From an uncultured Candidatus Saccharibacteria bacterium (GTDB lineage Bacteria > Patescibacteriota > Saccharimonadia > CAILAD01 > BJGX01), in the NCBI GenBank assembly GCA_964610335.1, contig CAZSVP010000002.1, positions 146,887 through 210,886 on the forward strand: a stretch of 64,000 nt of DNA. Reading direction: 5' to 3'. Below, one piece after another: positions 13,601 through 16,600 of this stretch. How positions within the stretch are numbered: the stretch's first letter is position 1; the number at the start of each line of letters is the position of its first letter. The position numbers are program-made.

Positions 13601-16600
13601 CTTTGAGCTGACGCCACAGCTACAGCGCCAGCTGGCAGCACGCGAAGGGTTGCGCTTAGCACAACTAGGCCACTACTTCGGCAAAGAACATATACCTAGC
13701 ACCAAGCGCTTTGTGTTAGATGTACCTATGTCTGACCAGCTAGTGCAAGAGCTTAAATTAGGTCAAACTTACGATAAGCTACCCGATCACGTAGCTGCAT
13801 TGGTTAGTATACAGAAGCGTCTAGATATACCAGAAGAAAGCAGTACCAAGATGGGGCTGATTGGTGGCTACCCCGAAAAACGCGGGGTTGATACTGGGCT
13901 TATTGAAAAAGCCAATAATGCACTACTATACGGTGAAGATATTAAGCTAGAGAGCCATGAATTTACTTGGCTTTATCCCATGTTAGCTACACGCATTGAT
14001 AAAGTAGAGAAAGATCCCAAACTAAAAGAAAAACTTGCCGACTTTGTGCAGAGAGCAATTCGCTATACCAATGAAACTGGCGATGGCCTAGATCTTATTG
14101 GTGGCGATAATGTGTTCTTCACCAAGTCCGAAGATGGTAGCTGGGACTTTCAAATGCCCGATGCTATCTCGATGCGCGCCAGATTGGTTGAAGATGCCGG
14201 ACAACGAATTGAGGAAATCTCCATGGGTAGAGAGCGTAGAATCAGTGACTCAAATGTGATTCTAAATGCGGTGAACTACGTGAGGGTTATCAATTGGCTA
14301 GCTCAACAGCTTGGTATTGAAGATAGAATAGATATGTTTGGGCCACAGACCAAAAAAACCAGACCAGACATATTGGCTATGATGTAATAATTACGAGACG
14401 GGGCCAGGCAATCAATGATCACCCGGCCCCAATTGCTTCTTGTTTGACAACCTACTCTTCGAGCAAGGCCGGTAGCTGGTCTTGCAGACGACAGCGCAAC
14501 TCGGCGCAGAACTGATTCAATTGGTCGGTCGCCTGCCACTTGGGATCCTGGTTGGGCTTGAAGCCGTGCAACAACTTGACCGCACCTCGCACATCGTGTG
14601 CCTTGGCTAGATCGCGCAGGGAGCGCAGAAACACCTTGCACTGCTCGAGCCGATTGAGGGCACTGCCGAGCTGCTTGCGCAACTCGGCAGCCTCAGCCTC
14701 AGCAGCCTCTACACGCAGATGGAACTCATGCAGTCGGTCGTGAGCCGCCACTCCAATGATTCGATCCAGGGGATCGGGGTTGAGGTCGGCGAATCGCTTG
14801 CGGAGCACCAGAAGCATGCTGTGCACCAGTTCGATAGCCTCATCCTCGGGCAAGACCTCGAACAGCCTAGAGCCAATGGCGTCACAACGCATTAGCTGCT
14901 CGTAGTCATGTTCTGTTGGTAGCCGGAAGCTCAAGGGCTCGCCTTCAACCATCACCAAGACTGTATCTGTCATGTCCCCTCCTGTGTCAGCGAATTGTCA
15001 AGAAGTGTAACTGTTATAGCAGACGAAGGAGCTTTTGACAATATCTGTTAGAATATTGGTATGAACGAAATAATGGGAAAAGACATTGCCAACCAGCTAG
15101 CCGAAGAGCTGGCTGATGAGGTAATAGAGCTCAAAACCAAAGGCACAACACCAAAGCTCGCAATTGTCACTTACCAGCCAGATGAGCGATCCTTGGTATA
15201 CGTGCGGCTCAAACAGAAACGCGCGCTGGAAGTTGGTATCGAGCTAGAATTACAGGATTGGAGTGACAACCAGCAAGATGATTGTCTGCGTCTGATGCGC
15301 GAGCTGGCCAAGAGAAGTGATGTGCATGGCATAATTGTACAGCTACCTATCAATGGCTGGTACGATCCTCAGATGTTACTCGATCTCATACCGCCAAACA
15401 AAGATGTTGATGGCTTGAGCCAAGCAAGCCTGCAAACTCTGCGCGATAATAATGCTGTATTGGTACCTGCCACACCACTAGCCATAATGACAGTGTTGCA
15501 AGAATCTGACATAGATCTCAACGACAAGAAAATAGTATTGGTTGGCAACGGCAAGATGGTAGGATTGCCGCTAAGTATTTTGCTGGAAAATCTCAAACTA
15601 GATGTCACCGTGTGTGACATCACCACTCAAGATCTAAACACAATAACTAGCCAGGCAGATGTATTGATAAGCGCCGCAGGCCAGCCAAAGCTGATCACAG
15701 GAGATATGGTAAAAGACGGCGCTGTGGTGCTCGATGTAGGTATTGTTGAGATCGGTGGTAAGCTCACCGGCGATGTCGACTATGAATCTGTGGAGTCAAA
15801 AGCAAGTAAGATTGCCAAGGTACCTGGTGGTGTTGGGCCAGTAACGGTAGTGTGCCTACTACAAAATGTAGTAACTGCAGCTAAAAACAACGGCTGATGT
15901 ATATAGGGTCGAAAAAAGTCACGGTTTTTGGTAAAATAGCCGGGTTCTATATCTCAAATCTTTAACAAATATGCGGATGTGGTGGAATTGGTAGACACGC
16001 TAGCTTGAGGGGCTAGTGCCTAATATATCAGGCGTGGAGGTTCGAGTCCTCTCATCCGCACCAGTAATTATTTCTAATGATTATAACTAGCTGGTAACTG
16101 ATCATGAAGATGCTTCATAGAATACTCGCGACGAAGCTTCATCATAGCTTCTTCGCGTGTAACATGAAGTTTCACACCCGGGTTGAGAAACCCAAGCGGG
16201 TCAAACAACTGTTTAACATCTTCAAATAGTTTGTAAACCTTGGCACCATATAAGTCTTTTAGGTAAGGGGCACGCATAATCCCATCATTGTGTTCGCCGC
16301 AAGTAGTACCGCCAAGCTTGATAATAAGTTTGTAAAAGTCGTCTGTTAACGAAAATAGCTTGGAACGATCCCGCAAGTTGGCAAGATCAAGAAATGGCTG
16401 GATGTGCAAGTGCCCATCACCAGCATGACCCCATATAGCAACTTCGACCTTGTACTTAGCAAACAGTTTGTCAGCATCAGCCAACAACTCCCCTAGCTTG
16501 GCAACCGGCACAGCACCATCCTCAATAATTGGTAACGCTTTCTTGGGGCTATCAATTGTCCATATAACTGCGGCAGCACCGCGCCGCACTCGCCAGAGCT

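Follow-up and report, generated by a model that had tools for sequence, protein, structure and literature searches.

The 64,000-nucleotide stretch analysed here (contig CAZSVP010000002.1 of GenBank assembly GCA_964610335.1, positions 146,887 to 210,886; hereafter the window) comes from an uncultured Candidatus Saccharibacteria bacterium and contains X173, a small GC-rich gene which encodes a protein of 173 amino acids (aa) and is transcribed divergently from folD. The explanation considered probable, if by no means assured, is that X173 is an ancient, vertically inherited orphan gained at a tRNA hotspot and that its GC-richness is maintained; that the protein is in some way linked to folD is a guess held with low confidence. 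X173 would have been gained once at the tRNA cluster, before the split between the clade of the window and its sister clade, with a block of back-to-back promoters arriving together with the gene. The source could be a GC-rich donor, of which none is detectable. A second orphan gene of 365 aa would have been inserted afterwards beside tRNA-Leu(taa), in the clade of the window only, and the high GC of X173 would be no mark of recency: selection or biased gene conversion would bias the synonymous sites of this particular gene and so keep its GC high.

Conservation and coding status of X173

The gene and its divergent partner are located as follows.

14452..14973, minus strand: X173 coding sequence, 173 aa with an ATG start, identified by its open reading frame (ORF), the ratio of non-synonymous to synonymous substitution rates (dN/dS) and a single shared open frame
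15061..15897, plus strand: folD, the divergent partner, with the Pfam domains THF_DHG_CYH and THF_DHG_CYH_C

The original prediction, made from the window alone, described a single GC-rich gene of 173 aa on the minus strand, convergent with the gene upstream and divergent from folD, and both the ORF and its composition bear this out. X173 has 58.2% GC and a GC content at third codon positions (GC3) of 0.70 in a window of 45.7% GC, between the convergent 365-aa gene with 43.9% GC (GC3 0.40) and folD with 46.8% GC (GC3 0.47). GC at first codon positions (GC1) is also 0.70, raised by the amino-acid composition alone. By its physical parameters the product is a hydrophilic, soluble protein of 19.8 kDa with a pI of 5.4 and no membrane segment. 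Pairwise comparison of five lineages gives a dN/dS of about 0.1-0.2 and the annotated frame is the sole one open across all seven sequences examined, so that X173 is, on comparative grounds, a genuine, independently transcribed protein-coding gene, with a family that occurs in a single uncultured bacterial lineage.

That X173 is instead a spurious ORF, left open by chance in GC-rich DNA which is non-coding or encodes an RNA, has next to no probability left. Stop codons are scarce in GC-rich DNA and alternative frames do run for 60-170 codons in individual lineages, but this explanation is already contradicted by the dN/dS, by the one frame open in all seven sequences, by a conserved Shine-Dalgarno sequence and start codon, by the lack of an Rfam match to the X173 segment, and by an mRNA fold that departs from shuffled sequences by z = -1.7 only. 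Dual coding or an antisense gene over X173 was ruled out, as no other frame is open in every lineage, and a selected mRNA structure was rejected on the same z score. An overlapping gene or excess mRNA structure is an unlikely cause of the GC-richness of X173.

A word-indexed search of 5.8 billion proteins found homologues of X173 in five clusters which are 69-97% identical, and synteny was extended by following folD homologues outward. SRR14932608, SRR31809888 and ERR15976552 are examples of metagenomes in which X173 occurs. Homologues of all five clusters occupy the same slot, with every contig recovered in agreement. X173 adjoins folD head-to-head in every recovered locus that extends that far, and the 365-aa gene lies tail-to-tail with X173 wherever homologue-bearing contigs of the window's clade (W clade) reach far enough. 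Identity to the lineage designated L001 is 72.7% for X173, 74.5% for folD, 69.8% for the 365-aa protein and 85.7% for the FAD-linked oxidase, and the synonymous divergence (dS) of X173 is at least 1, comparable to that of the flanks. Its presence is not patchy: the gene occupies the same site in three near-identical genomes and is missing from distant outgroups only. The fixed slot, together with protein identity and synonymous divergence that match the flanks, shows in this comparison that X173 has been inherited vertically with its neighbours, under purifying selection, since before the radiation of the clade. No integrase or transposase is present beside X173 and no common boundary repeats were found; a serine recombinase (5801-7312) lies about 7 kb away in a separate, window-specific island.

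Control elements between and behind the genes

The elements that control X173 and folD are the following.

15036..15041, minus strand: X173 -35 element TTGTCA, separated from the -10 element by a 17-nt spacer
15013..15021, minus strand: X173 extended -10 element TGCTATAAC, with TATAAC at 15013-15018; TG(C/G)TATAAC is invariant in the lineages aligned
15003..15008, minus strand: ACACTT block in the initial transcribed region just 3' of the -10 element, invariant in both clades
14976..14984, minus strand: Shine-Dalgarno sequence CAGGAGGGG, 2 nt from the X173 ATG
14400..14430, either strand: GC-rich hairpin GGGGCC...GGCCCC between the convergent stop codons, likely a bidirectional intrinsic terminator
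15046..15054, plus strand: folD extended -10 element TGtTAGAAT, which ends 6 nt before the folD ATG (15061) and is back-to-back with the X173 -35 element

The minus-strand promoter TTGTCA-17-TATAAC, its Shine-Dalgarno sequence, the folD extended -10 element in the same intergenic region and the GGGGCC/GGCCCC hairpin shared at the 3' end of X173 had all been predicted from the single sequence; each is present, and conservation now backs them. In an alignment of the intergenic region of W-clade lineages, whose synonymous divergence is at least one substitution per site, the blocks TCTG(C/G)TATAAC and (T)TACACTTC show no variation. The -35 element follows the pattern TTG(T/C/A)(C/A)A except in lineage L013, where it is TTGAAA, and GGAGGGG is conserved in every aligned row except that of L013. 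The sister clade repeats the layout of the X173 promoter with TTGACA, 17 nt, TGGTATAAC and then ACACTT. A scan for consensus promoters reported none for X173, because the scanner demands T as the last base of the -10 element, which is C here.

On the other strand, TGnTAGAAT is conserved 6-7 nt before the folD start codon in both the W clade and the sister clade, and this short distance implies that the folD mRNA would be leaderless. The -35 element of X173 sits 4 nt from the folD extended -10 element in an intergenic control region of 87-92 bp, with the putative start sites of the two transcripts about 55 bp apart. The hairpin behind X173 folds on both strands, with -27.6 kcal/mol (z = -3.3) on the minus strand, which is that of X173, and -19.5 kcal/mol (z = -2.4) on the plus strand. 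Five lineages retain this hairpin although 3 of its 14 pairs are altered on both sides, and it therefore behaves as a shared, probably bidirectional terminator of both convergent genes.

Sister clade, outgroups and the tRNA hotspot

In a sister clade whose folD is 63-66% identical to that of the window, a gene of 168-183 aa occupies the same slot in the same orientation as X173, with a GC3 of 0.63-0.69 as against 0.35-0.40 in the adjacent folD. Profile comparison by hhalign of X173 with this family gives a probability of 73% (E = 3e-5) over equivalent positions in both proteins, and the score of the X173 profile on the sister-clade gene exceeds those of 998-1000 of 1000 shuffles that preserve local composition. 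Position, profile score and shuffle test together suggest that the sister-clade gene (X-like gene) is a remote homologue of X173. Among the sister-clade lineages L015 (854-1405) and L017 (7404-7910), 37% of four-fold degenerate sites differ between the X-like genes, while 67-71% differ in the flanking folD, FAD-linked oxidase and SBP genes; this low divergence reflects either synonymous constraint or a more recent exchange between the lineages.

By contrast, no such gene occupies the slot in two outgroup genomes, whose folD is 58% and 47% identical to that of the window. Here the order runs from a cluster of tRNA-Leu(taa), Cys, Phe, Gly and Val to a gene for a membrane protein of 103-113 aa and then to folD. 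In L019, the nearer of the two outgroups, 6 nt separate the 103-aa membrane-protein gene from folD, which has no TGnTAGAAT promoter. The back-to-back promoter block is found only where X173 or an X-like gene is present, and is conserved together with it.

The position of the relevant tRNA gene in the window is

13183..13268, plus strand: tRNA-Leu(taa), found by ARAGORN and Rfam, part of the tRNA-cluster hotspot

Alignment of the 3' flanks shows that some 80-110 nt lie between the 3' end of the X-like gene and tRNA-Leu(taa) in the sister clade, whereas in the window the 365-aa gene separates X173 from this tRNA. Upstream of folD, each lineage examined (window 5215-5812, 12417-12493 and 13183-13268; L015, L017, L019, L021 and L001) shows its own pattern of inversion, splitting or interruption of the tRNA cluster Leu(taa)/Cys/Phe/Gly/Val. 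The cluster has received the serine-recombinase island in the window; in L017 it holds a copper-resistance block and in L021 a 2.7-kb insert. By this comparison of gene order, the cluster behaves as a hotspot of integration and rearrangement.

An insertion into a pre-existing regulatory region had originally been proposed for X173. Of this proposal the gain survives, as the slot is empty in two outgroups and lies in a variable tRNA cluster, and a recent date for it is not supported, as the gene is in the same slot everywhere, its divergence equals that of the flanks and its dS is at least 1. The pre-existing regulatory region has to be given up as well, given that folD follows the membrane-protein gene by 6 nt in L019 and that the promoter block occurs only with the gene. 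The prediction had also named, as an observation that would speak against it, relatives with the same gene at the same place and a backbone-like GC: the gene is at the same place in its relatives, and its GC there is not backbone-like.

Apparent maintenance of the GC-rich composition

X173 and the X-like genes have a GC3 of 0.63-0.71 in nine lineages, while that of the adjacent folD ranges over 0.35-0.54. Four-fold degenerate sites of the flanking genes differ at proportions of 0.55-0.69 within the clade; between clades, at 0.61-0.78, they are saturated. Calculated from these distances, a two-state decay toward a native GC3 of about 0.4 would require an ancestral GC3 of 1 or more, and simple decay is therefore rejected. 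Parsimony polarisation among the deep lineages gave a GC-to-AT excess of 2.26:1, first read as ongoing amelioration; the excess is uninformative, since in simulations of stationarity at a GC3 of 0.71 the bias of parsimony by itself produces 2.0-2.2:1.

A test of recent substitutions used the window and the close genomes L040 and L044, where synonymous differences of 5-20% make parsimony reliable. The GC-rich genes pooled in this test were X173 and the two genes of Cassette A:

3464/3506-3889 and 3886-4236: Cassette A, two adjacent GC-rich orphan ORFs with a GC3 of 0.73-0.76

Four native genes showed 84 GC-to-AT changes at 442 GC sites and 69 AT-to-GC changes at 554 AT sites, which corresponds to an equilibrium GC3 of 0.40 (95% confidence interval (CI) 0.32-0.47) in agreement with their actual composition. 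The three pooled orphans, with 27 GC-to-AT changes at 250 GC sites and 18 AT-to-GC changes at 97 AT sites, have an equilibrium GC3 of 0.63 (95% CI 0.48-0.76) and depart from the native substitution process (binomial p = 0.002). For X173 alone, 11 GC-to-AT changes stand against 22 expected (p = 0.007) and 5 AT-to-GC changes against 6 expected. These results are moderate evidence, drawn from substitution patterns, that the GC-richness of X173 is maintained rather than fading. Codon bias linked to expression is an unlikely reason, since GAPDH, presumably highly expressed as is usual, has a GC3 of 0.43. Selection on bacterial GC content, as reported in PMC2936529, provides a general frame for a GC-favouring force, not a gene-specific one.

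The X173 protein

When 1.84 billion representatives were searched exhaustively with an HMMER profile, only the family's own representative and one repetitive coiled-coil protein matched, and Foldseek searches of the X173 model against the PDB and viral structures gave nothing at E <= 0.001. Likewise, tblastn against phage and plasmid collections and a scan of viral contigs revealed no relatives of X173.

The AF2 model consists of an N-terminal β-hairpin, short helices and a long helix at residues 76-125, the last being the best-modelled part with a predicted local distance difference test score (pLDDT) of 81-89. Its hydrophobic residues follow a heptad pattern, with two heptad registers that are mostly L/V/A/F. 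A coiled-coil-like centre had been noticed from the sequence before, and the long helix and its periodicity agree with this. As modelled, X173 has the long helix with a/d heptads that is typical of dimeric coiled-coil proteins; its oligomeric state is conjectural. Conservation is strongest in the C-terminal LHGFKPNQDPKWQA-D-LNQFCAE motif, which together with the predicted coiled coil suggests a surface for protein-protein interaction. Throughout the W clade and the sister clade folD is the only constant partner of X173. The working guess on its function, speculative and held with low confidence, is a soluble oligomeric coiled-coil adaptor or regulator linked to folD expression or to one-carbon metabolism. 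Expression of X173 may be coupled to that of folD through the back-to-back promoters.

Neighbouring genes and other GC-rich orphans

The convergent neighbour of X173 is

13290..14387, plus strand: clade-restricted orphan of 365 aa with three homologue clusters only, convergent with X173

It starts 21 nt downstream of tRNA-Leu(taa). The kinase-like character ascribed to it in the original prediction finds no confirmation. The 365-aa protein has no match in Pfam, NCBIfam, PADLOC or the PDB sequences, its AF2 model (pLDDT 40) is unusable for a fold search, and its resemblance to kinases is at the level of motifs only (GKGGEHVV...VAK, DLIGGDN). Since it is absent from the sister clade, which retains the X-like gene, it is probably the younger of the two and would represent a later insertion between tRNA-Leu(taa) and X173 in the clade of the window only. 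The recent arrival at this locus would thus be the neighbour, not X173. A toxin-antitoxin or other two-gene module of X173 and the 365-aa gene was rejected: the two are convergent and not co-transcribed, the X-like gene persists without the 365-aa gene, and there is no PADLOC match. On the far side of folD, a gene of 134-152 aa overlaps the folD 3' end in most relatives, close ones included (L001 4642-5091, L015 2288-2692, L017 8815-9270). This gene is missing in the window, where tRNA-Leu(gag) directly follows folD (15897-15973).

Cassette A ends with a hairpin at 4400-4443 that has perfect arms of 17 nt. The two genes are conserved in L040 and L044, with one of them 77% identical to that of the window as against 99.5% for the flanking LemA, and its recent substitution spectrum corresponds to an equilibrium GC3 of about 0.68. 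Other orphans of similar composition are found elsewhere. The slot between UvrC and UvrA contains an orphan ORF with a GC3 of 0.61 in the window (22808-23173) and an ORF of 112-113 aa with a GC3 of 0.62-0.63 in the sister clade (L015 9645-9986, L017 16113-16451), and tblastn found no similarity between the two. Three further ORFs of 93, 237 and 141 aa (45362-46365, 53272-53697; GC3 0.58-0.70), without family matches, lie between the housekeeping genes for exonuclease III, a P-type ATPase and tgt. Paralogy among the GC-rich orphans, X173 included, was rejected because they share no mutual similarity, and shared mobile-element ends were rejected because the terminal hairpins of the cassettes are unrelated.

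It is a tentative proposal, held with less than even confidence, that the lineage contains a class of small restricted genes in fixed intergenic slots, whose GC3 of about 0.63-0.70 is held by a gene-specific force. Candidates are X173 and the two Cassette A genes (3464-4236), and perhaps the ORFs at 22808-23173, 45362-46365 and 53272-53697. Under the same proposal, and with the same reserve, the rest of the genome would have a GC3 of about 0.40 that drifts from lineage to lineage. Codon or mRNA composition could be under selection, or GC-biased gene conversion could act on loci prone to recombination. If the proposal is true, the compositional "foreignness" of these genes would be a maintained, functional property and not the fading scar of a transfer.

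Two larger islands are present in the window. One is a GC-rich island (61294-64000, 62-65% GC) which starts just after tRNA-Gln (61294-61368) and carries purH (62296-63840, minus strand, GC3 0.79) as well as orphan ORFs at 61493-61921 and 61997-62320. The best solved relative of its purH product is PDB 3zzm, a PurH which we take to be from Mycobacterium tuberculosis. The purH cluster representative lies on an independent assembly of 125,667 bp, and the cluster members of tgt and the FAD-linked oxidase list a longest contig of the same length, perhaps the same contig; the island may thus not be an assembly chimera. The other contains the large serine recombinase (5801-7312, minus strand, Resolvase and Recombinase domains), which abuts tRNA-Gly (5737-5812). 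As L040 and L044 have about 0.8 kb between a gene of 172-181 aa and LemA where the window has about 7.4 kb, some 6.5 kb including the recombinase (region 5801-12400) appears to be an insertion specific to the window.

Alternative explanations

The most obvious alternative is a recent horizontal insertion of a cassette into a pre-existing folD regulatory region, with the high GC as the un-ameliorated signature of a donor. The contrast of 58% against about 45% GC and the sharp boundaries at promoter and terminator would fit such an event, and the GC-rich purH beside tRNA-Gln suggests that GC-rich DNA does enter the genome. Synteny already contradicts it, though: the same slot is used in all relatives, X173 has diverged as far as its flanks at both amino-acid and synonymous level (dS of at least 1), the promoter and terminator are conserved along with X173, and there are neither mobility genes, direct repeats or shared boundary elements nor phage, plasmid or viral homologues. 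A recent insertion is thus very improbable. A different matter is whether X173 is foreign at all. It might have arisen within the clade, or diverged past recognition, and owe its GC wholly to the synonymous regime and to a protein rich in Ala, Arg, Leu and Glu. In favour of this, the GC-rich orphans have a substitution spectrum that indicates a high equilibrium GC3, about 15 billion proteins include no homologue from a donor, GC3 is similar across nine lineages whatever their background, and the amino-acid composition lifts GC1 to its observed level. On the other hand, neither outgroup has the gene, its site is a hotspot of integration at tRNA genes, the birth of a GC-rich ORF from intergenic DNA of about 40% GC is hard to picture, and the GC3 of GAPDH makes expression-linked codon bias insufficient. 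This origin is regarded as doubtful, but it is the alternative to be taken most seriously.

It is also conceivable that only the slot is fixed and that its resident promoter has repeatedly acquired new, related GC-rich genes out of a pool not yet sampled. X173 and the sister-clade protein are about 22% identical while folD is 64% identical and the promoter block is conserved; between UvrC and UvrA the two clades have GC3-rich orphans that are unrelated, and a Cassette A gene diverges between close strains beside a nearly invariant LemA. Within each clade, however, X173 tracks its flanks, the searches revealed neither reservoir sequences nor recombination sites, attC-like elements or an integrase close by, and the serine recombinase belongs to its separate island, which makes such an exchange improbable.

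Several observations count against the favoured explanation of an old, once-gained gene with maintained composition. The low identity between X173 and the sister-clade protein resides largely in the coiled-coil segment (29.5% over 61 residues). No homologue that could represent a donor turned up in any database searched, and Pfam, PHROGs, PADLOC, NCBIfam and PDB-sequence searches gave no match to X173 of any sort. As to maintenance, the equilibrium GC3 of X173 alone is imprecise at 0.53 (95% CI 0.26-0.75), recombination among the three close genomes leads to uneven local genealogies (synonymous codons of the 365-aa gene differ by 4.5% between L040 and L044 and by 10-13% between either and the window), and a non-stationary two-state likelihood fit on the deep lineages was unstable, gave nonsense for folD too and was discarded. 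The AF2 model, built from a six-sequence alignment, is mediocre (pLDDT 68, predicted TM-score 0.36). No DNA-binding domain was detected in X173: a ribbon-helix-helix (RHH) domain at the N-terminus, plausible by eye, was rejected when hhalign gave residues 1-75 a probability of 0.8% against an RHH alignment of eight members, which is a weak test, and Pfam has no RHH match at E <= 1.

Relation to known systems and significance

The nearest known category is the ORFan or acquired islet at a tRNA gene, with which X173 shares its restriction to one lineage, its odd composition, its variable tRNA cluster and its absence from outgroups. According to PMC3514957, ORFans are usually shorter and AT-richer than native genes. 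X173 differs from this category in being GC-richer, old and under purifying selection, in having no integrase or flanking repeats, and in a composition that is not relaxing. Of the features by which recent islands are recognised, X173 has the atypical composition and the adjacency to tRNA genes, and has neither the patchy presence nor the mobility genes or border repeats. The family is new, but of a familiar kind, that of the lineage-restricted orphan.

Conserved divergent gene pairs often consist of a regulator and its target, a general principle for divergently transcribed genes that Korbel et al. reportedly set out in Nat Biotechnol in 2004. The head-to-head pairing of X173 and folD, kept in two clades through saturated synonymous divergence, resembles such pairs; unlike them, X173 has no detected DNA-binding domain, the comparison with RHH proteins was negative, and regulation is conjectural here. 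The small N-terminal α/β element and the long heptad helix are reminiscent of ZapA-type coiled-coil adaptors, and ZapA is among the weak Foldseek matches, but these are not significant (E = 2.5-2.7, probability 0.1) and there is neither sequence similarity nor a shared gene context. As a lone short ORF followed by an imperfect inverted repeat, and one of several "cassettes" of odd composition, X173 also recalls the cassettes of integrons. It differs from them in having its own promoter and in a hairpin that is a conserved terminator, unlike the hairpins of the other cassettes, and an integron cassette was rejected on account of this promoter and because there is no attC site, no array and no tyrosine or integron integrase in the neighbourhood.

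X173 is a counter-example to the reading of a GC anomaly as recent transfer, as its anomaly has outlived synonymous saturation. It also corrects the local history of the locus, where the 365-aa gene would be the recent arrival. Since folD has been its only constant partner over a long evolutionary time, X173 becomes a candidate accessory or regulator of one-carbon metabolism. The unusual element is the apparently maintained GC-rich synonymous composition, which is common to other small orphans in the genome; if its maintenance holds, it would mean that synonymous composition can be controlled gene by gene in a genome of small size.

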